From assembly GCA_036339465.1 (NCBI GenBank), contig JAYZAY010000068.1:1-36407 (forward strand): DNA of 36,407 nucleotides, written 5' to 3'. Position 1 is the stretch's first letter. Each line of letters begins with the position of its first letter. The translations under genes were made by a program, and so were the position numbers. The DNA comes from Myxococcota bacterium (lineage in GTDB: Bacteria; Myxococcota; XYA12-FULL-58-9; JABJBS01). Under the pieces are notes generated by a model, which had not been told where the DNA came from, made no database searches, and was given only the letters and a program-made list of their open reading frames with translations. Below are positions 1,798 to 25,587 of the stretch, in pieces.

Positions 1798-4700
1798 TCA
1801 ATTCTTGGCACCACCACAATTCGTTACCCACCGCTTCACAAAGAGAGCATCATTGGCGTTCCAGCAGTTGACTCCTGGCGTACACCCCTTTGGCATTCGA
1901 GTGCCCTGTCCCCCGGTGGTGAGTCTCGTGTAGAACCTGGCCTGGTAGTAGCTACTGTCGGCAAAGGTGTTGGTATTGCCGTGGCATGCCGTGCTGCAAC
2001 CCGATGATGTACTGGTGCCGTTATTGGCGGTTTTGGGGCCATAGGAAAACCATGTAATCACCGCGTTGTAGATTGCCGTTCGGGCGCTACTAGAGGATGG
2101 GCATCCGATGGAAGCGTCTTCGCTGCTATCTCTACAGCCGTCTTGGTCGAAATCCTTAAATACGGAGGTCGCTCCCCAGTTTCCTTTAGCGCCCTTGCTG
2201 CACTTGTCCGGCCCCACTGAGCAGGTCCCACCTACGGCAGAATAGCCATCGCAAACACCGTCGTTGTCATCGTCTGGGTCTTCATAGGCCATGCATGTGA
2301 TTGACATCCCAACAAAACCCAAGAGGCTACAGTGGGTGTCATGACAACCGTCATCATCGTAGTCGAGGTTGTTGTCGTAGGAATTCCAGTTTTTGGCGAC
2401 GCCACTGCCGCCGGGGCAGTGATCAAACCAATTAGGTCGGTTGTCGTTGTCGTTGTCGGTGTCTTCGCCGGTAGAATCCTTACAGCCATCGTTGTCGTAG
2501 TCGAGATTGCCAAGGTTGGAGTTCCAATTCTTATAACCTTTCGGACAATCGTCGTCGATGTCATCTTGGTTGTCATTGTCATCGTCCTCGTCACAGGCAT
2601 CGCCTTGGCTGTCACTATCGTGGTTGCTTTGGTTGGCATTGCTTACGAGGGGACAATTGTCTTGGTTGTCTAGGTGCCCGTCCCCATCATCATCGTTGCT
2701 GCACGCGTTCCCTACTCCATTGTTATCCGTGTCCAATTGGGACGGGTTGGATAGGTACTGGCAATTGTCTGGACCCGACAAACAGATACCGTCTATAGCA
2801 GAAGTAGCATCACATACGCCATCGTTGTCATCATCTGGGTCCTCAGAATGAGCATCCTTGCATCCGTCGCTATCTTGGTCGTTGGCTCCCGTGGCTGTCC
2901 ATCCCGTGAGACCTCTTGAGCAGTTGTCTGATGTGTCGACAACCCCATCATTGTCATCGTCTGGGTCTTCCACATGACTGTCCTTACAGCCATCGTTGTC
3001 ATTGTCAGTGCTGAAATGGGACGTCCACCCTTTGGCGCCACGATAACATTGGTCGGGCCCATCCAAAATTCCGTCATTGTCGTCATCGTCGTCACAAGCA
3101 TTTCCCTCACTGTCGCCTTCATAATTGGTTTGACTGGGATTGCTTATCAATGGGCAGTTATCCAAAACATCAGCAACTGTATCCCCATCGTCGTCGATAT
3201 CACAGGCGTTCCCCTCATTATCTTTATCTGTATCGGTCTGACTTACATTGGATAGATATTGACAATTGTCTGGTCCCATCGAACATGTCCCTATCACCGT
3301 TTGGCTCCCATCGCAGATGGTATCATTGTCGTCATCTGGGTCTTCAGCGTGCGCATCTTTACAGCCATCGCTGTCTTGATCAGTGGCGCTATCGGACTTC
3401 CAGCCTAGAGCACCCTTTTTGCAGTCGTCCACGGTGTCGTTTACGTTGTCATTGTCATCATCTGGATCTTCAGCGTGTGCATCTTTGCAACCATCAGAAT
3501 CGTAGTCATTGACTCCATTAGATGTCCAAGAGGAATATCCCTTAGAACAAGCGTCTGAAATATCCGTCACACCATCATTGTCATCGTCGTTATCGCAGGC
3601 GTTGCCTTCGCTGTCCCCATCGTAATTACTTTGAGTCTTGTTGGGCGTCAGAGGACAGTTGTCGCTGCCATCTTTGACGGTATCGTTGTCGTCATCTTGG
3701 TCACAGGCATTGCCTTCGCTGTCCCCATCCGTATTGGTTTGAGATGGGTTTGAAACGTATTGGCAATTGTCAACTCCCGCAGAGCAGGCGCCACCCACGG
3801 CTTGGGCGCCATCACAAACTCCGTCGTTATCGTCGTCGGGATCTTCGCTGTTATTGTCCTTACAGCCATCACTGTCTCTATCGGTGGTGCTATTTGAGGT
3901 CCACGCGATGACCCCTGTGGGGCAATCGTCTACCCCATCGTTTATGCCGTCATTGTCATCATCGCTGTCGCAAGCATCCCCATTTTGGTCACCGTCGTGG
4001 TTGTTTTGGTTCGTATTGCTGATTAGGGGACAATTATCGGCCGCATTGGAGACGGTATCTCCGTCACTATCATTGGAACAAGCATTGCCTATTCCATCTC
4101 CATCGGTATCGAGTTGGTCGAGATTTTGAACGTATTGGCAGTTATCGATACCGTCATTTATCGTATCGTTGTCATCGTCAGGGTCTTCGGCGTGAGTATC
4201 TTTACAACCGTCTGAGTCATTGTCAGTGCCCGTATTGGCAGTCCAGCCTATCGCGCCTTGCGGGCATGTGTCTGCTCCATCAAGCATGCCATCGTTGTCA
4301 TCATCTGAATCACAGGCGTTGCCCACACTATCCCCGTCGCGGTTTGCTTGATCGGTGTTGCTCACCAAGGGGCAATTGTCCCCGCTGTCGTTGATGGTGT
4401 CTCCATCATCATCGTCGCTACAGGCATTGCCTATGCCATTTCCATCTGTATCTAGCTGGTTGATGTTTTGGACATATCGACAATTATCGCTGTCATCATT
4501 CACGGTATCGTTGTCGTCATCAGGGTCCTCGGTGTGGTTATCCTTACAGCCGTCTGAGTCATTGTCGGTATTTACATTGGCAGTCCAGCCAGTTGCACCT
4601 TGCGGACAGGTGTCTGGGTCATCGAACATGCCATCGTTGTCATCGTCACTGTCGCAGACGTCGCCTAGACTGTCTCCATCGTGATTTGATTGATTTTGAT

Positions 4701-7700
4701 TGCTTATTAACGGACAATTGTCTGTGCCGTCAGAGATACCGTCGCCATCATCATCATTGGCGCAGGCGTTGCCTATGCCATCCCCGTTTGAGTCTTCTTG
4801 GGCAGGGTTCGAGGTGTATTGGCAATTGTCTGGGCCTGCATTGCAGTTTCCCAAAACGCTTGGAGCACCGTCGCAAATACCGTCGTTGTCATCGTCTGGA
4901 TCTTCGGAATGCGCGTCTTTACACCCGTCATTGTCGCGGTCAGTGGTTTCGTTTGAAGCCCAATTGAGTGTACCTTTTGCACAGTTGTCGCTGATGTCAG
5001 CAAGGCCGTCATTGTCATCATCGGGATCTTCAGCATGGTTGTCCTTGCAGCCATCTGAGTCATGGTCTGTTGCTGCCCCCGAAGGCCAGTGCGCCTGCCC
5101 CTGTTTGCAGCTGTCTTGGCTATCAAGGATGCTATCGTTGTCGTCATCTGAATCACAGGCATTTCCCGCACTATCTCCATCGTGATTTGCTTGATTGGAA
5201 TTGACAAGCAGCGGGCAGTTATCGACGTTATCTTTAATGCTGTCCCCATCGTTGTCGTCGGTACAAGCATTGCCAATGCCGTCGCCGTTGGTATCTGTTT
5301 GGTTGAAATTGGCCGTGTATTGACAATTGTCGGATGAGTCATTGACGCCGTCATTATCATCATCATTGTCTTCGGCATTGTCGTCTTTACATCCATCATC
5401 GTCTTTGTCTGTTGTTCCATTGGAAGTCCAACCCGTGACTCCTTTTGAACATGAGTCGAGTCCATCGAGGATCCCGTCATTGTCGTCGTCCTGGTCTTCG
5501 GCTAGGGCGTCTTTGCAGCCATCATCGTCATGATCGCTGTTATTGTTTGCAGTCCAGCCGGCGTAACCTTTCGGGCAGCTATCCTCACCATCGAAGACAC
5601 TGTCGTTGTCGTCATCATCGTCGCATAGATCCCCGAGGGCATCTCCGTCGTGATTGCTTTGGTTGGCGTTACCGATTAAGGGACAATTGTCTACGCCATC
5701 GGTGATTGAATCTCCGTCGTCGTCGTTGGTACAAGCGTTTCCAACTCCATCATTGTCTGTGTCGATTTGGTCTGCGTTGGAGGTGTATTGGCAATTGTCG
5801 GAGTTGTCGATTATTCCGTCGTTGTCATCGTCCAAATCTTCAGCGTGGTCATCTTTGCAGCCGTCCCCATCGCGGTCTGTGGCGGCGTCGGAGCTCCAAC
5901 CAATGGCACCTTTGGTACAGTTATCCTGTGCATCGGAAACTCCGTCGTTGTCGTCATCGGGATCTTCGACATGGCTGTCTTTGCAACCGTCCCCGTCGTG
6001 GTCGTCGGTGGTGGTATCCCATGCGGTGGCGGCGTTATCTCCGTCGCATTGGTCCGAGGCATCGTTTAGCCCATCGTTATCGTCGTCGGCATCGCAGCGA
6101 TTTCCTTGGCCATCATTGTCCAAGTCCTTTTGATTTATATTGGGCACTTCGGGGCAGTTATCGGTGTTGTTACCGACGTAGTCTGTTGGTTTCAATAATG
6201 GACAAAAGAGCTGATTGTTGGTGCTCCCAAATCCATCACCATCACTGTCTAAGTAATAGATCCCTTTTCCGGGGCCTCCACATACGCCACATTCATCAGG
6301 AGAAGAGTTACAAAGATTTCCGCAAAGATATGAGGCACCCAAAATTTGTTGGGGGTTCGATGCTTTGGCTAAGCGAATGCCGCGAACTACACTTCCACCC
6401 TTACATTGGTCTGTCTCATAAGTGGTCTTATTCAGAGGTGCTCCGAGGGCTTGAAGTTCGGCTTCCGTACTGGTTGTTAACCCCCAAATGTCATCGGGTT
6501 TTTCTAAGTCTTGGCATTGAAGCCCGAGTCCTTTGAGGGTACCTGCAAGGATGGAAGTCCAGGTTGCTTGTCCCACGAGAACCTGTCCATCAGGACAGCG
6601 CAATTGAGTGTTGGGATCAGTATTGCAAGAAAAGAGGTCAATGGGGGTGGCTAGAAACTCATTGCGCAGTAGCTGGGCACCGTCGGTTTTTGAGCAGATC
6701 AGGCACATGTTTTTTGTGAGAAATATACCGCCACTTGAAACGGGAGCGAGTCCTGTTCCAACGTAACCTTCCGGACAGAAAGCGATCTCTGTGGATTGGG
6801 CGGTTATCCTGCCTGCAGGGTTCAATTTTAAAGCCACTTGACAATCATCGGAACATTCATCTCCATCGGTGGTGTTGCCGTCATCACAGCTCTCACCTAC
6901 TTCCACGAGTCCGTTACCGCAGGTGGAAATAACGACCTCGATATTGTCTAAATACCAACCACGGGGGGCAGAATTCGCAAGGGAATACAGACAGTTTTTG
7001 CAGTCCCAATTTAGGGTGAAAATCAAGTCGGGTGTTTGGGCGGCGAAGGTGGATATATCGGCTTCAACGCGGTCCCATTTCGCATCTTTGCCGTAATTGT
7101 GAAATCCGGAGGTCCCTTCATGGGGATAACAGGCTACATCGGAGGATTTACCTAAGTTGTTTAGTGGATACCGCCCTTTAGGTTCGATGGTTTCGGTGGT
7201 GTCACCACTTCTTACCTGAAGGTATGCCAGATCCTTTGCCCCAGACACTACAGGTGAACAGTATTCGCCTCCATCTAAGTCCAAATCTTGGTGGTACCTT
7301 ACCCAGATGGATTGGTGGGCACTAAGTGCGGGTAATGGCGGTAGGGAAGCTTCAAATCGAATTTTTGATGCTGTGGTGTTGGCTTGTTCTGCATATTGGA
7401 AGTGATAAGCGGGGGATTTTAGTCCAAATCCATTTTCTTTATTGATTGTACTAAGATTGACCGAAACATGTTGGTGATTAATATCGGTGTAGTTTTCTTC
7501 CCATGGATTATTATTGGAATGATTGCCATTGGCAAAGAAAAGTGAGATGCCGTCATCACATGCATCCCCCGCCTCATCTGCGCCCACAGAAAAATCAGTA
7601 TCGGCTTGGTTAGGGTTTGAAATAGCAATGCAGTTATCGCATTGATCTCCGACGCCATCGCCATCACTATCGGTTTGGTTTATGTTTGCAGCGTGGGGAC

Positions 7701-10700
7701 AGTTGTCACACCCATTGGGAACGCCGTCCTGATCTGAATCAAGGTTGTCATCGGCATTTCCACAAATATCGCAGCTATCACCACTACCGTCATTGTCACT
7801 GTCAGTTTGCGCGATGTTTGTATGCATTGGGCAGTTATCACAGACGTTTCCAACCCCGTCCTTATCAGCATCCAACTGGTTTGTGTTTTCAATCCCAGGG
7901 CAATTGTCGCATGGGTTGCCAAGGGTATCCCCATCGGCATCTACTTGGTCTGGGTTGTTGGTTGATGGGCATGAATCACATGCGTTGCCGACGCCATCAT
8001 GGTCAGTATCGGTTTGGTCTATGTTGCTCGTATTTACACAATTGTCGCAGGGGTCGCCTACCCCATCCGAATCCTTATCGTTTTGAGCACTGTTGGAGGT
8101 TGTGACACAGTTATCGCAGAGGTCACCGACAAGGTCTTTATCTTGGTCTTCTTGGTTTGGGTTTGAATGGGCGACACAATTGTCGCAAGGGTCACCAATT
8201 CCGTCTTTGTCCCCATCGGTCTGATTTGTGTTGGCATGATTGGCGCAATTATCACAGAGATCACCGACGGTATCTTTGTCAGTATCATTTTGATTACCGT
8301 TAGAGTCACTGACGCAGTTATCACATTGATTGCCGACGCCATCATTGTCTGTATCGGCTTGGTCAACATTGGAGTCATTGGGGCAATTGTCGCACACCTT
8401 ACCCACGCCGTCGGCGTCTTGGTCAGACTGATTTGGGTTTGAGGCCGCCGAGCAGTTATCACAGACATCACCTAGAGCATCGCTGTCCCCATCAGCTTGA
8501 TTCGAATTGGAAGTGGAATCGCAATTGTCACAGCGATTACCAATACCATCGCTGTCCTCATCTCTTTGGTTGGGGTTGCTGATGGACTCACAATTATCAC
8601 AGCCATCACCTACGCCATCGTTATCGTTGTCGGCTTGATTGGCATTGGAGTTAGATGGGCAGTTATCACAAACATTACCTACGCCATCGTTATCTTGATC
8701 CGCTTGCTCTGGATTATTGATAGATTGGCAATTATCGCAGCTATCTCCCACGCCATCTTTATCTAAATCTCTTTGGTTTGGGTTCTTTATGGTGACACAG
8801 TTGTCGCAGCTATTGCCGATGCTGTCGCCGTCACCATCTCTTTGGCTTGAATTGGAGGTGGTTGCGCAATTATCACAGCCATCACCTACGCCATCGCTGT
8901 CGCTGTCTTGCTGAGCTGCATTTGAATAAGTAACACAATTATCGCAGAGGTTTCCTATTCCGTCGGTATCACCATCCAATTGGTTTGGGTTGGTAGTCAC
9001 GACGCAATTGTCGCAGGCATCGCCAAATGCGTCTGAGTCACTGTTGGTTTGATTTTTATTGGTCGTCGAGACGCAATTGTCGCAGACGTCCCCCACGGTG
9101 TCCCCGTCTTGATCTCGTTGATTACTGTTGGCTGTGAGGGAACAATTGTCACAAACATCCCCCACGCCGTCAAAATCCCAATCACGTTGATTGGTGTTGG
9201 CTGTGAGCGAGCAGTTATCGCAGATATTGCCCACGCCATCAAAATCGATGTCGGCCTGGTCTGAATTCGAAGATCTCGAGCAGTTGTCGCAGTGGTCACC
9301 GACGCTGTCTGAGTCACTGTCGGCTTGATCTGTGTTGGGAGTTTGGAGGCAATTATCACAAAGGTCCCCCACGCCATCAAAATCTTTGTCTTCTTGGTTG
9401 AGATTGGCCACGGTTTGGCAGTTGTCGCAGCTATTGCCAAGTCCATCACCGTCATTATCGGTCTGACTTTTGTTTGAAATCTCAGGACAATTGTCGCAAA
9501 GGTCACCTAGGCCATCCCCATCTGTGTCAGCCTGATTGGAGGTGGAGGTAAAAGGACAATTATCGCACGCATCTCCAAAACCATCGCTGTCGCGGTCTAT
9601 TTGGGTCGTGTTGGTGGTAGCGGCGCAATTGTCGCAGGCATCTCCGATGCCATCGGCGTCTCCATCGTCTTGGTTGCTATTGGGGGCATCTACGCAGTTG
9701 TCACAGCTGTCTCCGATGCCGTCATTGTCCTCATCATTTTGGTTGCTATTAGAGTCATCTACGCAGTTATCACAGGCATCTCCGATGCCATCTCCATCTA
9801 AATCGTTTTGGTTTGTATCAAAAACATAGGGACAAACATCACATAAATCACCAATGCCATCTCCATCTGAATCTTTCTGGTTTTGGTTCGGCAAGCGGCT
9901 ACAGTTATCACAGATGTCACCGACGCCGTCATTGTCTTGGTCAGTTTGGTTGGCATTGGCATTTTGGATACAGTTGTCGCAGATATTTCCAATTCCATCA
10001 GAATCGATGTCCGTCTGAGCATTGTTGGAGGCGGAAATACAATTATCACAATGATTACCTACCCCATCGTTGTCGTTATCGGCCTGGTCCGAGTTGGATA
10101 TGCTGACGCAATTGTCACAGGTATTTCCGATGCCATCTGAATCTCCATCTCTTTGCTGGGCATTGGAGGTTGACGCACAATTGTCGCAGCTGTCGCCCAC
10201 CCCATCGTTGTCTTTGTCGTTTTGGGAGGTGTTGGAGGTCGACACACAATTGTCGCAGTTATCGCCCACCCCATCATTGTCTTTGTCGATTTGAGATTGA
10301 TTGGCGCGGTTCACACAATTGTCGCAGCTATCGCCCACCCCATCCCCGTCGCCGTCGGCTTGATTTGTATTCGGATTATTGATGCAGTTGTCGCAGCTGT
10401 CACCAAGCCCATCGGAGTCGCTGTCAAGTTGGGATTCATTGCTTGTGGATGGACAATTATCGCAGCTGTTTCCGTGGGAGTCCGAGTCGCTATTGATTTG
10501 TTCGGAGTTGGCGGTAGAAATGCAGTTGTCGCACAAATTTCCAATGCCATCCAAATCTCCGTCAAGCTGTGCTGGGTTTTCAGTGTAGGCGCAGTTGTCG
10601 CACAAATTTCCTAATCCATCGCCATCACTGTCGGTTTGGCCCATATTTGCCCTTGTTAGGCAGTTGTCGCAGATATTGCCGATTCCGTCGTTGTCGTCGT

Positions 10701-12333
10701 CACTTTGGTCCACCGAATTACTGCTCGGGCAGCTGTCGCAAACGTCGCCGAGGGCATCGCCATCCCCATTACTTTGGTCGGGGTTGTTGTCTTCACCGCA
10801 GTTGTCGCAAACGTTGCCCACGCCGTCTGAGTCTGAATCTTTTTGTGAGGGGTTGTTGTCTTCACCGCAGTTGTCGCAAACGTCGCCAATTGAATCCGCA
10901 TCGCCGTCTAGCTGGTTTGGGTTCGCGTTGAGCGGGCAATTGTCGCAGGCATTGCCGAATCCATCATCATCTTGGTCGTTTTGGTTGGGGTTGAGGGTGT
11001 CGGGGCAATTGTCGCATATGTCTCCCACCTGGTCTAAATCACGGTCCTCTTGGGTTGGATTCTGTTTTTGGAGGCAGTTGTCACAGGCATCTCCCACGGC
11101 ATCGCCGTCGAAGTCGCTTTGAGCAGGATTGAGAGTTGCCGGACAGTTGTCACAGGCATCGGGAATATTGTCATTGTCGGTGTCGAGGTGGTCATTACCA
11201 CCAAGGCAAATATCGATGTCATCACAAACCCCGTCCCTATCTTGGTCATTTAGCGCTGAGTCGGGACAGTGGTCGCAGAGATCGGGAGTGCCATCTTCGT
11301 CTCGGTCATTGTTTGGGCCAAGGAGGCAAGGGTCATCCGAATCACAAACCCCGTCTTGATCCAGATCGTTAAACCGGTCTTTCGGACAAACGTCACATTC
11401 ATCCGGAATACCATCGAAGTCGCTATCAACTAGGTCATTCCCATTTGGACACACATCACAAGCGTCGGGGATGCCATCATTGTCGAGGTCGAATCGGCCG
11501 TCGGAACCCCCTGGGCATCGGTCAGCGTGATCGCAGACGCCATCGTTATCGGAATCATCGGTGGCGTCGATGGGGCATGGGTCGCAGGCATCGGGGATGC
11601 CATCATTGTCCTGGTCGTTTTGATTGTTTCCTTCGGGGCAAATATCCATTGAGTCGCAGATGCCATCATTGTCTTGGTCGTTGAGTGGGTCGATGGGGCA
11701 AATGTCGCAAGCATCTGGAATTGAGTCTTTATCGGTGTCAATTTGATTATCGCCATCACAATCATCGACCCCATCGCAAATTCCGTCTCTATCCTCGTCG
11801 TTGGTGGCATCCCCAGGACAGAGATCACAAGCGTCGGGTAATAGGTCTGAATCCTGGTTGAGGAGGTCATTTCCACCCGCACATTTATCACAATGGTCAG
11901 GAATCGAATCTAGATCGGCATCCTTGTTGTCATTGCCCCCGGGGCATATATCTCGTGAGTCGCAAATACCGTCGCCGTCGCTATCGTCGAGAATATCATA
12001 GGGACATGCATCGCAGGCATCTGGTATACCATCCGCATCGAGGTCTAGGGTATCGTCACCTATGGCACAGCGGTCAAATTTGTCACAGATGGTGTCGAGG
12101 TCGCTATCGTGGCAGGGGCTGAGGAGTTGTGGGAGGCATATGTTATCAAGGCATATGAGGAGAGAGGCGCAATCACTGTCGTAAATACAAGGAATTACCG
12201 GATGGTTTTCTTCGAAACACGCGAGCATGCCAAGACTTGCGAGCAAGACAATCAGAAGTTTAACCATGGGATGTCGATTCATGCCGTGAGGGGTTGAGGT
12301 GTGTTGGTTAAATTGTTGTCCCCACTGATTCAT
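1798..12333 (-). CDS. Giant (~3,500 aa) thrombospondin type-3 repeat Ca-binding surface lipoprotein with Myxococcus Cys-rich repeat and C-terminal cytochrome-c-like domain
   Basis: Long run of DxDxDGxGDxCDNC repeats; signal/lipobox LLIVLLASLGMLAC; CGNGLVEVGESCDDGNTTDGDECSDDC; C-terminal CSTACH...RMP...RWV. ORF is open from 12408. ATG 12333 chosen for its GGGGAGAGG RBS; 12282 and 12267 are alternatives. Confidence 0.93.
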   Translation of the reverse strand: MNQWGQQFNQHTSTPHGMNRHPMVKLLIVLLASLGMLACFEENHPVIPCIYDSDCASLLICLDNICLPQLLSPCHDSDLDTICDKFDRCAIGDDTLDLDADGIPDACDACPYDILDDSDGDGICDSRDICPGGNDNKDADLDSIPDHCDKCAGGNDLLNQDSDLLPDACDLCPGDATNDEDRDGICDGVDDCDGDNQIDTDKDSIPDACDICPIDPLNDQDNDGICDSMDICPEGNNQNDQDNDGIPDACDPCPIDATDDSDNDGVCDHADRCPGGSDGRFDLDNDGIPDACDVCPNGNDLVDSDFDGIPDECDVCPKDRFNDLDQDGVCDSDDPCLLGPNNDRDEDGTPDLCDHCPDSALNDQDRDGVCDDIDICLGGNDHLDTDNDNIPDACDNCPATLNPAQSDFDGDAVGDACDNCLQKQNPTQEDRDLDQVGDICDNCPDTLNPNQNDQDDDGFGNACDNCPLNANPNQLDGDADSIGDVCDNCGEDNNPSQKDSDSDGVGNVCDNCGEDNNPDQSNGDGDALGDVCDSCPSSNSVDQSDDDNDGIGNICDNCLTRANMGQTDSDGDGLGNLCDNCAYTENPAQLDGDLDGIGNLCDNCISTANSEQINSDSDSHGNSCDNCPSTSNESQLDSDSDGLGDSCDNCINNPNTNQADGDGDGVGDSCDNCVNRANQSQIDKDNDGVGDNCDNCVSTSNTSQNDKDNDGVGDSCDNCASTSNAQQRDGDSDGIGNTCDNCVSISNSDQADNDNDGVGNHCDNCISASNNAQTDIDSDGIGNICDNCIQNANANQTDQDNDGVGDICDNCSRLPNQNQKDSDGDGIGDLCDVCPYVFDTNQNDLDGDGIGDACDNCVDDSNSNQNDEDNDGIGDSCDNCVDAPNSNQDDGDADGIGDACDNCAATTNTTQIDRDSDGFGDACDNCPFTSTSNQADTDGDGLGDLCDNCPEISNKSQTDNDGDGLGNSCDNCQTVANLNQEDKDFDGVGDLCDNCLQTPNTDQADSDSDSVGDHCDNCSRSSNSDQADIDFDGVGNICDNCSLTANTNQRDWDFDGVGDVCDNCSLTANSNQRDQDGDTVGDVCDNCVSTTNKNQTNSDSDAFGDACDNCVVTTNPNQLDGDTDGIGNLCDNCVTYSNAAQQDSDSDGVGDGCDNCATTSNSSQRDGDGDSIGNSCDNCVTIKNPNQRDLDKDGVGDSCDNCQSINNPEQADQDNDGVGNVCDNCPSNSNANQADNDNDGVGDGCDNCESISNPNQRDEDSDGIGNRCDNCDSTSNSNQADGDSDALGDVCDNCSAASNPNQSDQDADGVGKVCDNCPNDSNVDQADTDNDGVGNQCDNCVSDSNGNQNDTDKDTVGDLCDNCANHANTNQTDGDKDGIGDPCDNCVAHSNPNQEDQDKDLVGDLCDNCVTTSNSAQNDKDSDGVGDPCDNCVNTSNIDQTDTDHDGVGNACDSCPSTNNPDQVDADGDTLGNPCDNCPGIENTNQLDADKDGVGNVCDNCPMHTNIAQTDSDNDGSGDSCDICGNADDNLDSDQDGVPNGCDNCPHAANINQTDSDGDGVGDQCDNCIAISNPNQADTDFSVGADEAGDACDDGISLFFANGNHSNNNPWEENYTDINHQHVSVNLSTINKENGFGLKSPAYHFQYAEQANTTASKIRFEASLPPLPALSAHQSIWVRYHQDLDLDGGEYCSPVVSGAKDLAYLQVRSGDTTETIEPKGRYPLNNLGKSSDVACYPHEGTSGFHNYGKDAKWDRVEADISTFAAQTPDLIFTLNWDCKNCLYSLANSAPRGWYLDNIEVVISTCGNGLVEVGESCDDGNTTDGDECSDDCQVALKLNPAGRITAQSTEIAFCPEGYVGTGLAPVSSGGIFLTKNMCLICSKTDGAQLLRNEFLATPIDLFSCNTDPNTQLRCPDGQVLVGQATWTSILAGTLKGLGLQCQDLEKPDDIWGLTTSTEAELQALGAPLNKTTYETDQCKGGSVVRGIRLAKASNPQQILGASYLCGNLCNSSPDECGVCGGPGKGIYYLDSDGDGFGSTNNQLFCPLLKPTDYVGNNTDNCPEVPNINQKDLDNDGQGNRCDADDDNDGLNDASDQCDGDNAATAWDTTTDDHDGDGCKDSHVEDPDDDNDGVSDAQDNCTKGAIGWSSDAATDRDGDGCKDDHAEDLDDDNDGIIDNSDNCQYTSNADQIDTDNDGVGNACTNDDDGDSITDGVDNCPLIGNANQSNHDGDALGDLCDDDDDNDSVFDGEDSCPKGYAGWTANNNSDHDDDGCKDALAEDQDDDNDGILDGLDSCSKGVTGWTSNGTTDKDDDGCKDDNAEDNDDDNDGVNDSSDNCQYTANFNQTDTNGDGIGNACTDDNDGDSIKDNVDNCPLLVNSNQANHDGDSAGNACDSDDDNDSILDSQDSCKQGQAHWPSGAATDHDSDGCKDNHAEDPDDDNDGLADISDNCAKGTLNWASNETTDRDNDGCKDAHSEDPDDDNDGICDGAPSVLGNCNAGPDNCQYTSNPAQEDSNGDGIGNACANDDDGDGISDGTDNCPLISNQNQSNHDGDSLGDVCDSDDDNDGMFDDPDTCPQGATGWTANVNTDNDSDGCKDNHTEDPDDDNDTVNDDSDNCRYVQNINQLDTDGNGIGNACSDDDDGDTINDSGDNCPLVSNTDQANRDGDSVGNACDSDDDNDGMLDGADTCPQGAIGWTANTGTDNDSDGCKDTHAEDPDDDNDTINDGIDNCQYVQNLDQLDTDGDGIGNACSNDSDGDTVSNAADNCPLISNTNQNNHDGDQNGDACDSDDDNDGINDGVDDCPTGVIAWTSNSTTDRDSDGCKDNNSEDPDDDNDGVCDGAQAVGGACSAGVDNCQYVSNPSQTNTDGDSEGNACDQDDDNDTVKDGSDNCPLTPNKTQSNYDGDSEGNACDNDDDNDGVTDISDACSKGYSSWTSNGVNDYDSDGCKDAHAEDPDDDNDNVNDTVDDCKKGALGWKSDSATDQDSDGCKDAHAEDPDDDNDTICDGSQTVIGTCSMGPDNCQYLSNVSQTDTDKDNEGNACDIDDDGDTVADVLDNCPLISNPSQTNYEGDSEGNACDDDDDNDGILDGPDQCYRGAKGWTSHFSTDNDNDGCKDSHVEDPDDDNDGVVDTSDNCSRGLTGWTATGANDQDSDGCKDAHSEDPDDDNDGVCDATSAIDGICLSGPDNCQYLSNPSQLDTDNNGVGNACSNDDDGDGHLDNQDNCPLVSNANQSNHDSDSQGDACDEDDDNDNQDDIDDDCPKGYKNWNSNLGNLDYDNDGCKDSTGEDTDNDNDNRPNWFDHCPGGSGVAKNWNSYDNNLDYDDDGCHDTHCSLLGFVGMSITCMAYEDPDDDNDGVCDGYSAVGGTCSVGPDKCSKGAKGNWGATSVFKDFDQDGCRDSSEDASIGCPSSSSARTAIYNAVITWFSYGPKTANNGTSTSSGCSTACHGNTNTFADSSYYQARFYTRLTTGGQGTRMPKGCTPGVNCWNANDALFVKRWVTNCGGAKN

Positions 12334-12572
12334 TAAGACCTCTCCCCGCATTTGGTCATCTATGGTTTTTCTTGGTATGCATGCACCAAAATTGGCTTTT
12401 GTTGTCAATTACTGGCTGGTGACTTTGTGTGGTAGGTCACAACGCCGGCCTTCTTCTTCGATTGAGGTGTATGGGGGCGTTCAAAGAGCTCGTAGTAAAC
12501 CGAAGAATCGGCGTATTTAGGGGACCCGATGGGTCCTAGGGGGAGGACAACGCTCAGTATCGGGAATCGGCG

Positions 12573-17195: not shown

Positions 17196-17978
17196 TCATC
17201 CGTCAACATCATCAGCAGTCGCGCGCTTAGACCCTGGCAAATAAACCAAAAGAGCCTCCTGAAGTACCTTAGGATGCATCCCTGTCTGAATCCCCGTCAC
17301 AGCATCCATCAACAGTAATTTCGCATCCTTCTCTTCACCACTCCGAATCGAAAGCTTATCTGCAATGGGCAACGCAAACATATTGGCCAACATCGCACCA
17401 TAAAGCGTGGTCAAGAGAGCCACCGCCATCGCTGGACCAATGGTTGTCGGATCAGACATATTGGCCAACATTTGCACCAAGCCAATCAAAGTACCAATCA
17501 TACCCATGGCCGGTCCCACATCCCCAATAGCCGTAAATATCTTTTGACCAATCTCGTGGCGTTCAACAGTCTTCGAAATATCGATCGTCATCGTCGTTCT
17601 CAAAGTAACCGGATCAACATTATCAATCATCTTTCGAATCGCATCTTTCAAAAAAGGTTCGGTGATCGTCTCTCCTTCTAATGAGACCACACCTTGACGA
17701 CGAGCCTTTTCTGCCAACTCAACACAACGATTGATCAGCGCCTGATTGTCATCACCTTTAAAGAAAAAAGCCTTAAGCGCAATCTTAACCGCGCCCAGAA
17801 TTTGGCCGATACCAAATTTCATCATGACCACAAAAACAGAGCCACCCATGACAACAAGTAGCGAGGGTATGTTGACAAAGAGCATAATCCCACCCTTGCC
17901 TTGAGCAATACCAAACCCGACTATACCGATAGCTCCAACCAGTCCCACGAGTGTCGCCAAATCTGGCTTCATACGCAT
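17196..17978 (-). CDS. pomA: Flagellar-type stator subunit A (PomA/MotA family)
   Basis: DLATLVGL, VVMMKFGIGQILGAVKIALKAFFFK, GDVGPAMGMIGTLIGLVQML, IGPAMAVALLTTLYGA, PIADKL; resembles Vibrio PomA as recalled. Confidence 0.93.
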   Translation of the reverse strand: MRMKPDLATLVGLVGAIGIVGFGIAQGKGGIMLFVNIPSLLVVMGGSVFVVMMKFGIGQILGAVKIALKAFFFKGDDNQALINRCVELAEKARRQGVVSLEGETITEPFLKDAIRKMIDNVDPVTLRTTMTIDISKTVERHEIGQKIFTAIGDVGPAMGMIGTLIGLVQMLANMSDPTTIGPAMAVALLTTLYGAMLANMFALPIADKLSIRSGEEKDAKLLLMDAVTGIQTGMHPKVLQEALLVYLPGSKRATADDVDG

Positions 17979-18067
17979 CCTCTCAGAGCGGTGGACGATT
18001 CAATCATTACTCGATAATGCTAGCCTGGACCGCTACTGAAAGCCAAGAATTATCAGTTCTTTAGGAT

Positions 18068-18967
18068 TCATTCCGGGGCTTGCTCGGCAAGATTTTTCAA
18101 GTGTTCCTTAATCTGTAAACCACTGACATCATCCACATTGTTTGCGTGGATAATAAAAGCACGAGCATCTAAATCTCCTGGCTTGATCAAGGCTGTGTCG
18201 TTCTGGTTTAAGACAATTGTGATCCGACGATTCTTGGCTCGATTCTTGGCAGTATCGTTAGACACCCGTGGTTGGGTATCCCCAAAACTACGCACGGCGA
18301 AACGGGCCGATGGAAGTGTCTTCTCAACCAATGCGTTCAGCACAGAGACCGCTCTCGCCGATGCCAATTCCCAGTTTGAACGAAATCTTCGAGATTTAAT
18401 GGGTCGGTTATCGGTATGACCAATAATTGTAATTTTACCATCGGTCTTCTTGAGAGTCGCACGTAATTTTTTAGCGACCTTCTTGAAAGACCTCTTTAAA
18501 GTGGCACTCCCCGAAGTGAAAGTAACCGATTGTAACAATCTAATCTTGATGGTTTCCCCATCCTCTTCGATCTCAATGCGGCCCGCCTCAACTTCCTTAG
18601 ACAGATCCTCTTTCAATTTGGCGCTGGGGTCGGGGACTTTCTCGACTTCAATATTCTCCAAAACCTCTTTAAGATCTTCGATATTCTCAATAGTTTCCGG
18701 TTGGCCACCCAGCTCGTTGACCATAGACTCGACCATCTCTTGGTAGGTCTTCTTCTCCACAGTGGCCGAAGCACAAAGCATAACAAAGAAACACATAAGG
18801 AGGGACATGAGATCCGCAAACGTGGTTACCCACCCAGGTGTTCCACCACCTGCCTTGGGCTTTTTGCCGATAGCAACTGCCGGACCCGCTGGTTCCTCGG
18901 CACTTGTATCAGCTTCCTTCCCCGCCTTGCCTTTCTTGCTATTTTTTTTCTTTGTTGGTGGCGCCAT
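18068..18967 (-). CDS. motB: Stator subunit B paralog 1 (PomB/MotB, OmpA-like peptidoglycan-binding domain)
   Basis: WVTTFADLMSLLMCFFV TM segment with conserved Asp; GHTDNRPI, SNWELASARA, RAKNRRITI. Confidence 0.92.
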   Translation of the reverse strand: MAPPTKKKNSKKGKAGKEADTSAEEPAGPAVAIGKKPKAGGGTPGWVTTFADLMSLLMCFFVMLCASATVEKKTYQEMVESMVNELGGQPETIENIEDLKEVLENIEVEKVPDPSAKLKEDLSKEVEAGRIEIEEDGETIKIRLLQSVTFTSGSATLKRSFKKVAKKLRATLKKTDGKITIIGHTDNRPIKSRRFRSNWELASARAVSVLNALVEKTLPSARFAVRSFGDTQPRVSNDTAKNRAKNRRITIVLNQNDTALIKPGDLDARAFIIHANNVDDVSGLQIKEHLKNLAEQAPE

Positions 18968-19223
18968 TGTGCCGAAACCCTGTATTCTCCTTAAGTGTAG
19001 GGTATTTTCAACCTAAACAACAAGATCCCCAAACCGTATTACGACTACGAGACTCTATGGCTGACGAGAAACCAAAAAGAAAAAAGAAAAAGAAGAATGC
19101 GGAGGACCAACCCAAGAAAGAGAAACGCCCAACAGCCGCATCCATCGACGATGGTGGTAGTAAGGCAGCTGCGGGTGGAGGTTGGATCACCACTTTTGCG
19201 GATCTCATGTCCCTCCTTATGTG
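18792..19223. repeat. Perfect 29-bp inverted repeat pair (18792-18820 / 19195-19223) within the two divergent motB genes
   Basis: TTTGCGGATCTCATGTCCCTCCTTATGTG is present on the minus strand in motB1 and the plus strand in motB2. Confidence 0.9.
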
Positions 19224-19893
19224 CTTCTTCGTCATGATCCTATCCATGTCCACCATCTCCAAAGAGAAATTCAAAGCCATGCTCGAAGGCATGACCGAAG
19301 GCCTCAATATCAATCGCTCCACCATGGTCGTTCAGAAAGTAAACAACCAAGTTACCAAAATTCTAAAACAAAAAGTCCAAGAGCAAGAACAAACCTCTGT
19401 CGATATTGAGAAACTACGAAAGCTCCTAAGGCCCATAATCAAAGCCAAACAAATCGAGCTTGTGATCCGAGATCGCGTAATCGTTATTAGAATACTTCAA
19501 GGTGGATCCTTCAGGCCCGGTAAAGCAAAACTCAAACGCAGTTTCATGCCCGTCGCGAGAAGATTAAGAAAAGCACTGACCCAAATTGAAGGCTCCATTG
19601 CCGTCGCCGGTCATACAGATAACAGACCCATAAAATCGAGAAAGTTTCGATCCAACTGGGATTTGTCTGGGGCAAGAGCCTACTCTGTGATGCACGAATT
19701 ACTAAAGGAAAAATCAATTCCATCGAATCGGTTCGTTCTAAACGGCCAGGCAGAAACCCAACCCCTTCTCTCCAACAAAAAAGCCGCAGGAAGAGATAGG
19801 AATCGGCGGGTCGAAATAATCATCCAGCAAGATGACCTCGGATACCTCGAAAAAGATCACAAGAATCAGCCCAGCAAGACCAAATCCAAATAG
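19057..19893 (+). CDS. motB: Stator subunit B paralog 2 (PomB/MotB)
   Basis: WITTFADLMSLLMCFFV, GHTDNRPI, SNWDLSGARA, NRRVEIII. Start moved to ATG 19057 (MADEKPK) to avoid overlapping paralog 1. Confidence 0.92.
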   Translation: MADEKPKRKKKKKNAEDQPKKEKRPTAASIDDGGSKAAAGGGWITTFADLMSLLMCFFVMILSMSTISKEKFKAMLEGMTEGLNINRSTMVVQKVNNQVTKILKQKVQEQEQTSVDIEKLRKLLRPIIKAKQIELVIRDRVIVIRILQGGSFRPGKAKLKRSFMPVARRLRKALTQIEGSIAVAGHTDNRPIKSRKFRSNWDLSGARAYSVMHELLKEKSIPSNRFVLNGQAETQPLLSNKKAAGRDRNRRVEIIIQQDDLGYLEKDHKNQPSKTKSK

Positions 19894-20140
19894 AAGCAGT
19901 AAAAAATAACTTGCTCCAAACTTGGTCACAACGATTTAATGGAGGGGAAAGTACCCCGAAAGAAATGAATGAGAGGGGTTTTGCAATGCCACCAAGCTCA
20001 GGAACAAAAGTGGCAAAGCAAACCCGTGAATCTAGGGGTTGTCAGCCTCCACTCTGCGCAGTGGGAAAGACGTCCGAACCCTCTGACTGCCGCTGGTTGT
20101 CATAAGTGGGCACTGAGAAGTCACTATCTGGGGAGATGAA

Positions 20141-20839
20141 ATGGGTAAAATCTTAGTCGTAGACGACGACGCTACAATACAAGCTCTTGTTACACACGCA
20201 TTCAAATCCACCGGCCACAGTCTGACCCAAGTCCCCACCGGGCAAGATGCCTTGGATTCCATGGGAAAAACTGCCTTCGACCTGATCCTCTTAGACATCA
20301 ACCTTCCCGATATCCCAGGCCCTGAGATCCTACGCCGCATTCGAGAGGTAGACTCAAACACCCCCGCGGTACTACTAACAAGAGAACATTTATCCTCTAC
20401 CATTGGTCCCATGCTACAACTCGGAGTTAGTAGTTACATTCACAAACCCTTTACTCCGGGGCACTTAAGGGGACGTGTTTCTGCCATTCTCGACCGAAGC
20501 ATCTCGGCTGATACAGGGACCGAAACAGGATCAGATGAGTTACAGATGGAATGTGAGTTCGGCCACCTACTCAATAAAATGATCTCGACATTGAAAATCG
20601 AGGAAGCCGAAGCAAAGGCTCTTCTAAAAGAGCCCTATAAAGGGGTCTGGCCTTCCTGCAAAGATTGGGCACGCAAGCACCTCACGAGCACGACCAAACT
20701 CAGCGAAGTGCCCGAAGAACTGCTCCACTACTTCCAGTTTGAAAAATATGTCTCGGATTTGCAAGAACGGCATGAGCTCTTCGTGGTTGAGTACCATAAC
20801 GCTGTCCACATTTTCCATAGACCCAAGCCCACCCAATAA
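20141..20839 (+). CDS. Response regulator: N-terminal receiver fused to a C-terminal ArdA (antirestriction)-like domain
   Basis: ILVVDDD/LLDINLP/LLT/HKPF receiver; C-terminus EPYKGVWPSCKDWARKHL..EVPEELLHYFQFEKYVSDL..ELFVVEYHNAVHIF follows the ArdA C-terminal pattern. Confidence 0.85.
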   Translation: MGKILVVDDDATIQALVTHAFKSTGHSLTQVPTGQDALDSMGKTAFDLILLDINLPDIPGPEILRRIREVDSNTPAVLLTREHLSSTIGPMLQLGVSSYIHKPFTPGHLRGRVSAILDRSISADTGTETGSDELQMECEFGHLLNKMISTLKIEEAEAKALLKEPYKGVWPSCKDWARKHLTSTTKLSEVPEELLHYFQFEKYVSDLQERHELFVVEYHNAVHIFHRPKPTQ

Positions 20840-20880
20840 ACACGCCATATTCTCGATTTGATGCAGCGTGACCACCCCTG

Positions 20881-21174
20881 TTGGTGACTTTAATTGTGGA
20901 CGTAGGCACCGGTCTAATTATGAGTTGTCATGGAAGAGATCAATATCTCAATTTCGACCGAATCGATATACTCAGCCGCGATCAAATAGGAACCGAAAAT
21001 GCCACCTCCACCTCCCCCAAAGAAACCGATCACTCGGTTCTTTTGATCGAAGATGCGAATTCTCCCATGGAGAATGACAATGAAGACAACAATATTGGTG
21101 TTTTCAACAGGGCAAAAATGATTCGAAAAATGACGAGACACCCACCGATGAAGACCAATCATGAGCTAATTTGA
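20881..21174 (+). CDS. Hypothetical protein
   Basis: 97-aa ORF filling the gap after the regulator and converging on the kinase; no recognised motif. Confidence 0.35.
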   Translation: MVTLIVDVGTGLIMSCHGRDQYLNFDRIDILSRDQIGTENATSTSPKETDHSVLLIEDANSPMENDNEDNNIGVFNRAKMIRKMTRHPPMKTNHELI

Positions 21175-21196
21175 AGCCCAAAAAAAAAGTTTCAGA

Positions 21197-22000
21197 TCAC
21201 TTCCCCGGCAGGATTAGCTTTCGCTGAAAATCCAGAGCCAGTACATGGGTGAAAAATGTCTCGGCATTTTGATTCATCCATTCAATGATACGCTGGTAGT
21301 GCAGAAGAAATCGCGTTACCTGATTTCGGTCCATACCCGATGATGGAGCTGCGGCATCAGCCATCACATTTGATTTTTCTTGCTCCAAACGCCAACCCAC
21401 CACCGTTTCGAATGACGGCGACTTAAGGTAGACACTTGAGTGAAATCGGTTCCAATACTTTTCGTAACCATCAATCTGCTCGTTTACATATCGCCGCCAA
21501 AGACAATCGGCATCCTCTTCTGCCTCCATCGTGTTTCGAGCGATAACCAAACTTGACTCCGGTTGCACCAAAACCCCCAAACACCACCCTTCAACCAAAA
21601 TTACTTCCGGCCTCTGGCCCGTGACCCTGGTCGTGCCAACTCGGTCATCTTTTAACTTATCAAACTTTGGTTTTGCATAAACCCTTCCCTCTAATTCAGC
21701 TTCAACATGCTCAAATAGCAACGGCAATTCATGCGTGCCCGGCACACCTCTCACACCCAAAAGTGAATGAACCCCCTGGGCGAGCTTCAATCGCTCGGCC
21801 CTACACACATAATAATCATCCAAGGAAAAAATAACACAGCGCCGTTTCTGGGCTTTTAAGACCCTTTGAATATCCTGCGTCAAAGTTGATTTCCCTGACC
21901 CAGGTGCACCGGCAATTCCACAAACGATAGATTTCCCTTCACTTTCACCTTCTAAGGGAAATACCGTACTCATCACAAAATCCAGTAGGTCCATGTCCAT
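21197..22000 (-). CDS. P-loop kinase, D-glycerate 3-kinase (GLYK/Tda10)-like, PRK/uridine kinase superfamily
   Basis: GIAGAPGSGKST, FSLDDYY, RGVPGTH, PKFDK..DDR, LVEGWCLG, WRLEQE; AAGGAG RBS. Confidence 0.85.
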   Translation of the reverse strand: MDMDLLDFVMSTVFPLEGESEGKSIVCGIAGAPGSGKSTLTQDIQRVLKAQKRRCVIFSLDDYYVCRAERLKLAQGVHSLLGVRGVPGTHELPLLFEHVEAELEGRVYAKPKFDKLKDDRVGTTRVTGQRPEVILVEGWCLGVLVQPESSLVIARNTMEAEEDADCLWRRYVNEQIDGYEKYWNRFHSSVYLKSPSFETVVGWRLEQEKSNVMADAAAPSSGMDRNQVTRFLLHYQRIIEWMNQNAETFFTHVLALDFQRKLILPGK

Positions 22001-22102
22001 CAAACTCCTTACGCTTCCACTTCGAAATTACATAATATCAAAAAGAGCTTGCAAAATATTCCGTCAGGAGTAAGCAATTCTCTGAGTTCCTTGGGGGGGA
22101 GC

Positions 22103-23077
22103 ATGCCAACACAATTCCGAGCTCTAGTCGAGCTCGATTCGGAAATTGATATTATCAAATTCGATATTCTGGACGGATTACATCAAAGTCTAAAGTCGAT
22201 TCCAACAAAATTACTCTTCGACCATGATGCAATAAGATTGTGGAATCAACTGAGAACATCCCATGAACTATTTCCGTCCACCGCAGAGATGAACCTGCTC
22301 GATGAGCACATTGAGCCAATAGGAAACTTGATACCCGAAAACACCGCCTTAGTCGATTTTGGCTGCGGACGCGGTGAAATAGCCAAGAAGCTACTCGCCC
22401 ACACCGACACCATTGAAACCTATATTCCAATCGACGCTGCAAGTCAGGTGTTAATGGAAACAGTCAAGGATGTCACCGACCATCATTCAAACTTAGATAT
22501 CATTCCGGTCCATGCAGATTTTCAAAAACAGTTCTTTAAGCTTCCGCTCCCAAAAGAGAAAAATATCGTCGCTTTGTGCTCAAGCACCAGTATCGGGATG
22601 CTCAACACAACTCAACTCAAAGAATTTCTTCATCAAGTATTCGGTCGGTGCCACCCAAAAGGTGGACTCTTAGTTGGACTAGAACTCGAACCAGAAGAGA
22701 ACAAACGAGATCTCGTTTGTGAAGAGAAAGAGGGTCTTTGCCAAAAATTCGGACTTCATCTCTTAGAACGCATGAACAAAGAATTCGACATGAATTTTGC
22801 ACCAAACAAATTCAAATACAAGTTGAGTTACAATACAGGATTCAAACGGATAGAGATGCTTCTAGAAAGCTTAAAAGCTCAAAGCGTTGCTATTCTCGAT
22901 ACTGAAATCACCATTGATGTGGGTGAATGTATCAAAGTGAATGAGGTGCACACCCATAAGCCCAATTGTTTTCGCCTCTCATGTGAATCAATCGGATTCA
23001 AAAACCAATTGGAGTGTTACGACTCCAAAGGAATGACTACACTCCATTATTATACAGCCAGTATTAACCACTTGTGA
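22103..23077 (+). CDS. egtD: EgtD-like SAM-dependent methyltransferase (Methyltransf_33/DUF2260), divergent
   Basis: DILDGL..KSIPTKLLFD, LVDFGCG, YIPID, VHADF, STSIG, LLVGLE, FGLHLLERMNKEF, RIEMLLES. ATG 22103 follows GGGGGAG; the ORF is open from 22049. Confidence 0.75.
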   Translation: MPTQFRALVELDSEIDIIKFDILDGLHQSLKSIPTKLLFDHDAIRLWNQLRTSHELFPSTAEMNLLDEHIEPIGNLIPENTALVDFGCGRGEIAKKLLAHTDTIETYIPIDAASQVLMETVKDVTDHHSNLDIIPVHADFQKQFFKLPLPKEKNIVALCSSTSIGMLNTTQLKEFLHQVFGRCHPKGGLLVGLELEPEENKRDLVCEEKEGLCQKFGLHLLERMNKEFDMNFAPNKFKYKLSYNTGFKRIEMLLESLKAQSVAILDTEITIDVGECIKVNEVHTHKPNCFRLSCESIGFKNQLECYDSKGMTTLHYYTASINHL

Positions 23078-24912: not shown

Positions 24913-25587
24913 TTATCTGTCACGCTTGGCCCTCTCAGATGCAATAAGTTCCTCGAACAATGCCTCATCATCATAATAAAAACGGCTAATCTGAACACCA
25001 ACCCCGCGTTCAATCCCTTTTTCTCGAGCTATATGTTCATCGATAACGTAAACAACAGCTCCTTCTGCATGTAGGACAACCATCGGGCCCAAAAGATGCA
25101 CGGAAAATGGAATAACTTCGCGTAAAGAAAACTTATCCGCCGTCGGCAAGAAAATACCTCGGTGCTTCAAATTACGTTCGTACTCTTCCCAAAATCTAAC
25201 TTGGGACTCATAAGTAACAGTGAGGCGCTCCTTGAAACCACCCCGGCAGCTTTTAGACTCTGTTTCGGTAATAACTCCTTCTAAAAACTGTATATACGCC
25301 TGACTTCGTTCCAAAATTTGAACTCCCATCAAAAAAACAAACGTCAGGGTTTCTCGTTTCGCTTCTTGCCTACACCATCGAATTTCTCCCTTTAACTTTA
25401 TCTCACCAAACTCAGTAGGCACGAAAACATCTACCATCGATTTCGGTTTGAACCCCTTCTTTCCCCAAATAGCCAGCCCACCCGACGATAAGTCAACCGT
25501 AAACCCCTTCAATTTGATTCCGCCTGATTCACACCACACAGGTAGGCGACGAATAAATCGTTTATGTTCCCGATCTTTAACTGTCAT
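24913..25587 (-). CDS. Tandem PilZ-domain protein (c-di-GMP-binding PilZ plus TIGR02266-like domain)
   Basis: REHKRF (RxxxR), TVDLSSGG (DxSxxG), GEIRW, MGVQI; second domain FWEEYERNLKHRGIFLPT...AEGAVV...GVGVQ. Confidence 0.85.
   Translation of the reverse strand: MTVKDREHKRFIRRLPVWCESGGIKLKGFTVDLSSGGLAIWGKKGFKPKSMVDVFVPTEFGEIKLKGEIRWCRQEAKRETLTFVFLMGVQILERSQAYIQFLEGVITETESKSCRGGFKERLTVTYESQVRFWEEYERNLKHRGIFLPTADKFSLREVIPFSVHLLGPMVVLHAEGAVVYVIDEHIAREKGIERGVGVQISRFYYDDEALFEELIASERAKRDR

Follow-up and report, generated by a model that had tools for sequence, protein, structure and literature searches.

The ArdA anti-restriction proteins are DNA mimics. The sections of the structural account of the Tn916 protein drawn on here (Orf18; PDB 2W82; Pfam PF07275; McMahon et al. 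2009, PMC2731889) describe an elongated monomer of three domains, the third of which holds the dimer interface and superposes on winged-helix DNA-binding domains. Residues L127, L134, Y137, I138 and D146 are given there as dimer contacts, and D109, D111, D112, D115, E122, E123 and E129 as the acidic residues which carry the DNA-like charge across the dimer. The same portion of ArdA that is treated below is known as an independent evolutionary module in sArdC which, in the text of Utkina et al. 2025 (PMC12548430) used for this comparison, is free-standing and acidic, is predicted to dimerise and has antirestriction activity dependent on its acidic residues. Here we describe a gene on the forward strand (20141..20839) of a 36,407-nt stretch of Myxococcota DNA (assembly GCA_036339465.1, contig JAYZAY010000068.1), the whole of which is referred to below as the window. 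It encodes a protein, the fusion protein, in which a phospho-receiver is joined to the C-terminal part of ArdA. No receiver-ArdA protein was found described in the literature, where the PF07275 papers were judged by title or abstract, and an initial annotation made from the letters of the window had likewise known of no such response regulator.

Receiver proteins with outputs that do not bind DNA are familiar from the myxobacteria, where FrzS, AglZ and RomR steer motility machines through oligomerising outputs made of coiled coils or proline-rich regions; true- and pseudo-receiver forms of these exist and they are linked to Mot/Tol-type motors. Cytoplasmic regulators which bind the flagellar stator or rotor include the PilZ proteins YcgR, MotI and FlgZ and the CheY-like Cle proteins. 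By analogy, the fusion protein may resemble the first group, as it comes from the same phylum and combines a receiver or pseudo-receiver with a putative interaction or oligomerisation domain; its output differs in being an ArdA fold. It may also be likened to the second group as a small cytoplasmic signalling protein for which action on the stator or rotor is proposed, whereas YcgR, MotI, FlgZ and Cle use cyclic di-GMP-binding PilZ domains or bare CheY domains.

The gene and its parts were placed in the window as follows.

20141..20839, forward strand: receiver-linker-ArdA-C fusion gene (P0001), 232 amino acids, ATG start, stop included; orthologs P0122 and P0123.
20130..20135, forward strand: Shine-Dalgarno-like GGGGAG, 5 nt upstream of the fusion ATG, read from the sequence.
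20150..20479, forward strand: receiver (REC), residues 4-113 (Pfam, PhoP alignment, invariant residues, (beta-alpha)5 in the AlphaFold 2 (AF2) model).
20501..20533, forward strand: disordered linker, residues 121-131 (predicted local distance difference test score, pLDDT, below 50; indels in alignments A1 and A2).
20531..20818, forward strand: ArdA-derived domain, residues 131-226 (Pfam, phmmer, profile against PDB, AF2, Foldseek, VIA-align, ESM Atlas).

The full-length AF2 model, built from 14 fusion sequences, divided the protein into a receiver (1-120), a linker (121-131) and an ArdA-derived domain (about 130-226). The linker differed in length by more than 20 residues among the orthologs in alignments A1 and A2. 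The ArdA-derived domain was modelled as two helices followed by a strand-helix-helix-helix-strand-strand order; the two helices resemble the end of ArdA domain 2 and the winged-helix-like domain 3 comes after them. A G>A variant at 20496 was present in a contig of one public run, in the codon for residue 119, which is R in the window and Q in P0002, the 99%-identical representative of its cluster; the difference, close to the linker, reflects natural variation in the population.

Analysis of the C-terminal domain against Pfam revealed a match to ArdA (PF07275) over residues 147-217, covering model positions 87-150 of 155; it scored 30.3 bits (E 7.8e-7), the gathering score being 27, and the C-terminal 102 amino acids scanned alone scored 32.6 bits. 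P0122 and P0123, orthologs from two other genera that are 34-42% identical to the window protein, each passed the gathering score independently (36.8 and 31.8 bits), and the ArdA matches of the three orthologs spanned only model positions ~73-153 of 155. A phmmer search of 1.84 billion representatives with the 102-amino-acid domain returned 50 matches at E ≤ 1e-3. Forty-eight of these were scanned with Pfam, leaving out the protein's own cluster (P0002) and a 1,902-amino-acid repeat protein (P0124) that was matched in 25 short stretches; ArdA was found at E ≤ 0.01 in 47 of the 48, and 45 of the 48 reached the gathering score. With the unscanned P0124 set aside, the best match outside the own cluster was P0125 (E 6.9e-10), a full-length ArdA (137 bits in Pfam). 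PHROGs gave matches to two 'anti-restriction protein' families (E 2e-4 and 2e-3). P0094, which covered 89% of the query, was rejected as a member of the family because its C-terminal half was an unrelated, Cys-containing tail.

The structural comparisons agreed with this assignment. A profile made from seven fusion C-terminal domains only (A4) found Tn916 ArdA (2W82) first in PDB, at E 1.1e-3 and over ArdA residues 106-152; a stronger PDB match came from a profile that contained ArdA proteins and was hence not independent. Foldseek with the AF2 model of the C-terminal domain (pLDDT 88.7) also ranked 2W82 first, with probability 0.98 and a template-modelling (TM) score of 0.59 over 88 columns; as its E value was only 0.12, the rank, the probability and the VIA-align Z-score were relied on. 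VIA-align placed the model on ArdA residues 71-164 with Z 7.7 and a root-mean-square deviation of 3.5 over 92 residues, and the next match, at Z 4.4, and those below it were generic winged-helix domains. The full-length model, which was free of ArdA sequences, showed the same helices and strands as the C-terminal domain model, and the ESM Atlas' own model of the fusion protein matched an ArdA-domain cluster over residues 131-228 (TM 0.72).

The C-terminal domain is thus almost certainly a true homolog of ArdA with the ArdA fold. It corresponds to the C-terminal ~60% of ArdA (residues 71-164 of 165), which under the domain limits given in the sections of PMC2731889 drawn on here amounts to the last three-quarters of domain 2 and the whole of domain 3. 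The three-domain, elongated monomer of ArdA is not present, as the N-terminal 130 residues are receiver and linker; a receiver stands where ArdA has domain 1 and the beginning of its second domain. The initial annotation had recognised an ArdA-like C-terminal domain, had implied that only the C-terminal part of ArdA was there, and had proposed to give up the likeness should no significant profile or structural match to ArdA be found. Profile, single-sequence and structural matches all pointed to ArdA, and its placement of the ArdA-like peptide required only a trivial shift of the start, from ~20546 to about 20558.

Mapping of ArdA onto the fusion family by the fusion-only profile alignment showed a contrast between the dimer interface and the acidic surface. 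The five dimer contacts listed in the cited sections of PMC2731889 (L127, L134, Y137, I138 and D146) correspond to L187, L194, Y197, F198 and D206 of the window protein, and the VF-motif column corresponds to I224-F225. L187, Y197, F198, D206 and F225 were invariant across the fusion family and position 194 was L or M in all eight fusion proteins. The residues of the 'antirestriction motif', the dimer interface and the VF-motif, as far as the source gives them, were therefore kept. A homodimer prediction for two copies of the C-terminal domain (alignment A3), made without controls, scored 0.30 against a mark of 0.42 and counts neither way.

The negative charge of ArdA was not maintained. The ArdA-like region of the eight fusion proteins had a net charge of -6 to +1 (mean -2.9; isoelectric point, pI, 4.9-8.35), compared to a mean of -13.5 (range -21 to -3; median pI 4.3) in 42 ArdA or mini-ArdA proteins; the impression in the initial annotation of a domain less acidic than typical ArdA was correct for the family as a whole. 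Fifteen columns were at least 60% acidic in the 42 ArdA and mini-ArdA proteins, and the eight fusions had lost the acidity at nine of them, kept it at three and were intermediate at three. The ArdA D139 column, which is 95% D, was N, Q or H in all eight, and positions 179 and 217, mostly acidic in ArdAs, were mostly Lys or Arg. The seven acidic residues described in PMC2731889 as spanning the interface correspond in the window to V169, P171, S172, D175, T182, S183 and E189, and among these only D175 (ArdA D115) was conserved in the fusion family. The dense, DNA-mimicking negative surface of ArdA is accordingly absent at the level of the family. The window copy was more ArdA-like than its orthologs, and its own loss of net charge came mainly through extra Lys and Arg. 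As the syntenic orthologs P0122 and P0123 had a net charge of +1 (pI 8.2-8.4), the conserved function cannot need a strongly negative surface, and classical DNA mimicry has quite probably been lost as a conserved function. The fusion protein also differs in this from sArdC, as described in the text of PMC12548430 used here, since its module is attached to a receiver instead of free-standing and, taken over the family, is close to neutral instead of acidic.

The N-terminal part matched the Pfam receiver PF00072 over residues 4-113 with 85.4 bits against a cut-off of 30.2 (E 3.8e-24). PDB receivers were matched at E 1e-16 and the AF2 model showed the five strand-helix units, (beta-alpha)5, of the receiver fold. 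D8, D9, D10, D52, T80, Y99, K102 and P103 did not vary among the four sequences of alignment A1 with a canonical receiver, which are three distinct orthologs and a 99%-identical copy, and D52 lined up with the phospho-acceptor Asp of Bacillus subtilis PhoP. The aspartate pair, phospho-Asp, Thr and Lys-Pro from which an intact receiver had been read initially are thus D8/D9, D52, T80 and K102-P103, and the receiver has all the residues that phosphorylation requires. OmpR-family regulator models of NCBIfam matched far below their cut-offs and chiefly in the receiver, with alignments reaching residue ~165 at most; for the C-terminal part NCBIfam gave no match. An output domain of the OmpR/PhoB type was not found, there being no match to PF00486 (Trans_reg_C) at E ≤ 10 in a Pfam search of the fusion protein. 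No HisKA or HATPase_c gene was found among the 18 open reading frames (ORFs) of the window that were scanned with Pfam, and the fusion regulator is therefore regarded as an orphan.

The fusion architecture is rare. It was represented by five 90% clusters in 5.8 billion proteins, none of them named in that table; a word-index search with residues 131-232 alone recovered only the protein's own cluster and a profile search added the other four. One member of the family, in the branch described below, carries the NCBI name 'antirestriction protein ArdA [Myxococcota bacterium]', a label which calls for caution over such automatic naming. A profile of the C-terminal domain matched eight of 401 sampled Myxococcota genomes, and three of these (G000, G001 and G002, which are three genera of one family) encoded fusions; the matches in G012, G205, G396, G025 and G034 were rejected as fusions, being ordinary acidic full-length ArdAs or an ArdA fragment. 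Within the class, which here equals the order, the fusion was present in three of 22 species genomes. The stretch recurred in marine or seawater metagenomes (12 runs from five studies, shares 0.23-0.88), and the DNA contigs of three such runs had no indels where they covered the fusion gene.

A sister branch (P0129, P0167, P0173 and P0174) has a pseudo-receiver, with N in place of D8 and D52 and V or I in place of K102, and retains the ArdA-derived C-terminal domain. As this branch keeps the domain without D52 and K102, the module must have a function of its own. P0261 was also placed in this branch. In a tree of the C-terminal domain (49 rows, after P0154, the only row over 130 residues, was dropped), seven of the eight fusion domains formed one clade (support 96/89), and the window copy fell in a polytomy, its branch being long (1.44). 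Holding all eight fusion domains together was not rejected by the approximately unbiased (AU) test (p = 0.289). Given the tree, the shared receiver and the gene order, a single capture of the ArdA module is the simplest history, though not a proven one. The C-terminal module of ArdA also makes up natural mini-proteins of 82-115 amino acids (P0130, P0138, P0139, P0141, P0151, P0156, P0168 and P0172), and in P0154 (258 amino acids) it is fused N-terminally to a CHC2 (primase-type) zinc finger. Being found alone and in the CHC2 fusion, it behaves as a mobile domain, which agrees with the sArdC family as presented in the part of PMC12548430 used.

The context of the gene is chromosomal. Pfam analysis showed FBPase, IMPDH, oxidoreductases and a thrombospondin type 3 (TSP3) repeat protein around the fusion; there were no mobile-element genes among the window ORFs, and no tRNA or Rfam match was found in the window. 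Unlike the plasmid, conjugative transposon or phage carriage expected of ArdA, the gene is flanked by FBPase, IMPDH and mot genes and is syntenic across three genera, where it lies beside motB. Neither HsdS nor HsdR_N domains were found in the genome, which is 92.8% complete, so that the host appears to differ from the setting of ArdA in having no type I restriction-modification genes detectable by these two domains. The genome carries FliG, FlhA and 13 MotA/ExbB-family loci. The stator genes next to the fusion were as follows.

19057..19893, forward strand: motB2, MotB/PomB-type stator B subunit (Pfam MotB_plug and OmpA; NCBIfam MotB 213.6 bits).
18068..18967, reverse strand: motB1, second MotB-type gene, divergent from motB2 (Pfam, NCBIfam; same arrangement in L002, L003 and L026).
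17196..17978, reverse strand: motA, located downstream of motB1 and coding for a PomA-like stator A subunit (Pfam MotA_ExbB; NCBIfam PomA 327 bits, cut-off 341).

With the flagellar MotB family of NCBIfam, for which the cut-off is 259, both MotB proteins scored about 214 bits. The order motB2 then fusion was found in all five loci with a visible upstream side (the window, G002/L002, G001/L003, L025 and L026), and L026 displays the complete motA-motB1 / motB2-fusion arrangement. The gene downstream of the fusion changed with each locus, being a nucleotide-kinase-like gene, a PLD-like gene, an ion channel or a nitroreductase. The gap between motB2 and the fusion was 247 bp in the window and about 50-90 bp in the other four loci. 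In the one RNA-library run a single 151-nt contig (20325-20475, 100% identical) fell in the receiver part, where DNA carry-over is possible, and the motB2-fusion junction was without RNA cover. A scan of 18800-21300 gave one promoter-like and five terminator-like sites, no excess over shuffles (means 2.4 and 3.0). A paralogous pair of divergent motB genes occurs elsewhere in the genome and in relatives (G000 C43, L051, L055; G001 C382, L052; G004 C712, L044), where it is followed by a 5-formyl-tetrahydrofolate cyclo-ligase-like gene and no fusion. Genomes of genus g4 of the same family (86-88% complete) contained only canonical flagellar motAB and no fusion.

The stator cluster (17196-19893) is itself unusual in having one PomA-like motA and two divergent MotB-type genes. 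A reading of these genes as Zorya (ZorA/ZorB) was rejected, as the window MotA (260 amino acids) had no PADLOC match and was PomA-like (327 bits), and the MotBs gave only generic ZorB cross-matches (59-81 bits, PADLOC). The 5' parts of the two motB genes, coding for the transmembrane/plug peptide, form a 57-nt inverted repeat that is 88% complementary (18779-18835 / 19180-19236), and contigs of two public runs join at this repeat on opposite strands. On the reverse strand at 24913-25587, ~4 kb downstream of the fusion, lies a gene for a PilZ-domain protein assigned to TIGR02266, a paralogous family of Myxococcus (68.3 bits, cut-off 68.7); it was not seen beside the orthologs. A histidine-specific S-adenosylmethionine methyltransferase (Methyltransf_33, EgtD-like, 167 bits) is encoded on the forward strand at 22049-23077, divergent from the nucleotide-kinase-like gene at 21197-22003 (reverse strand). 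On the reverse strand at 1798-12408 there is a giant ORF of 3,536 amino acids with at least 19 thrombospondin type 3 repeats (566 bits in Pfam).

Because the ArdA-derived piece was not kept strongly acidic and always lies beside a flagellar-motor gene, it is probably a protein-contact module and not a mimic. We favour the reading that the ArdA module was exapted by a phospho-switch, to which it gives an output for dimerisation or protein binding and which probably acts on the neighbouring stator; as a composite we give this reading about an even chance. Taken separately, ArdA-type dimerisation of the module is somewhat probable, and a functional link of the protein to the stator is a possibility we put forward tentatively. 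The protein would then be an orphan response regulator of an uncultured marine Myxococcota lineage, with an output domain captured from an ArdA anti-restriction protein that no longer mimics DNA and may instead serve as a dimerising or protein-binding module. A constitutive ArdA-type dimer would hold two receivers through the flexible linkers, and phosphorylation of D52 would alter the packing of the receivers, either with each other or against the module. This change could switch the binding of a partner, most likely a cytoplasmic part of the neighbouring PomA-like/MotB stator or flagellar motor, and thereby adjust motor output or the use of stators. The family-specific residues K179, D188, N199 and K217 may mark a new binding surface.

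Several observations weigh against this exaptation reading. Across all ArdAs the fold residues that vary least are the same ones that make up the kept 'interface', and their conservation is therefore no proof of dimerisation; the dimer and the partner are both inferred. The Foldseek E value for ArdA was weak for a first-ranked match, and the alignment behind the AF2 model of the C-terminal domain (A3) included ArdAs. The window copy remains mildly acidic (net -4, pI 5.95, D or E at nine of the 15 ArdA-acidic columns) and the core of the pseudo-receiver branch has a pI of 4.5-5.0. The link to the stator consists of gene order seen within one family (three genomes and two metagenome contigs), and in the window a 247-bp gap lies between motB2 and the fusion.

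The initial annotation had offered two options, a dimerisation or output domain co-opted from ArdA, which the kept interface residues favour, and a signal-switched DNA mimic, which is disfavoured by the lack of conserved acidity. In the latter, the module would fill the DNA-binding groove of a type I restriction-modification enzyme, or of another DNA-binding protein (a transcription factor or nucleoid protein, for example), under the control of the receiver, and mimicry, in mobile elements a constitutive weapon, would here be a regulated endogenous signalling output. The acidity still left in the window copy and in the pseudo-receiver core would suit such a protein, as would the true homology of the domain to ArdA and the NCBI label on one family member. 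Precedents come from stand-alone sArdC, for which antirestriction and antimethylation activities have been measured (Utkina et al. 2025, PMC12548430, in the text used here), and from chromosomal ArdAs, proposed to modulate transcription in the portion of PMC10746416 drawn on. Mutation of acidic residues, however, lowers the activity of sArdC according to the same text of PMC12548430, and the fusions have lost nine of the 15 ArdA-acidic columns, reversed the charge at 179 and 217, conserved one of the seven interface-spanning acidic residues given in PMC2731889 and, in the syntenic P0122 and P0123, become net positive. The fusions also lack some 40% of the mimic surface, namely domain 1 of ArdA and part of its second domain, and neither mobile elements in the window nor HsdS or HsdR_N domains in the genome as sequenced were found. 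Together these points make a gated mimic quite unlikely.

The two orthologs with net positive charge would fit a domain that had reverted to DNA binding, where the winged-helix-like domain 3, freed of its charge, would make the protein a transcription-factor regulator, for example of the mot genes. The superposition of ArdA domain 3 on winged-helix DNA-binding domains in the cited sections of PMC2731889, the winged-helix repressors among the lower structural matches of the model (Z 3-4.4), the OmpR-family regulators as the best named relatives of the receiver and the position of the gene beside a divergent promoter region are all consistent with this. We nevertheless consider it very unlikely, as the domain has no invariant basic residue, the helix at the recognition position (residues 200-209) is acidic, with E201 in most members and D206 invariant, the charge ranges from -6 to +1 among the orthologs, and no Trans_reg_C or other DNA-binding Pfam match was found. 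The protein could also be a generic dimeric receiver, acting as a phosphate sink or a phosphorelay branch without relation to motility, with the adjacency to motB being inherited gene order. The window offers no kinase or obvious effector gene, the motB linkage is confined to one family, and the 247-bp gap ahead of the gene and the promoter and terminator scan, which did not exceed shuffles, are in line with this. Its orthologs, however, are only 34-42% identical and have all changed their downstream neighbours, and motB2 is still adjacent in five of five loci, at only about 50-90 bp in the four others; relatives without this mot cluster are also without the fusion, and the pseudo-receiver branch, which cannot be a phosphate sink, yet retains the module. 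A generic receiver is on this evidence rather unlikely.

If the exaptation reading is true, this is a clear case in which a domain otherwise known only from the anti-restriction DNA mimics of plasmids, transposons and phages was taken over by a chromosomal two-component regulator, with the fold and the self-association surface kept and the charge pattern that defines the mimic shed. The fusion enlarges the set of output domains used by response regulators and gives the ArdA module a new job. Should the stator link be real, it would be a new coupling of phospho-signalling to stator units in a flagellated marine lineage of the Myxococcota.

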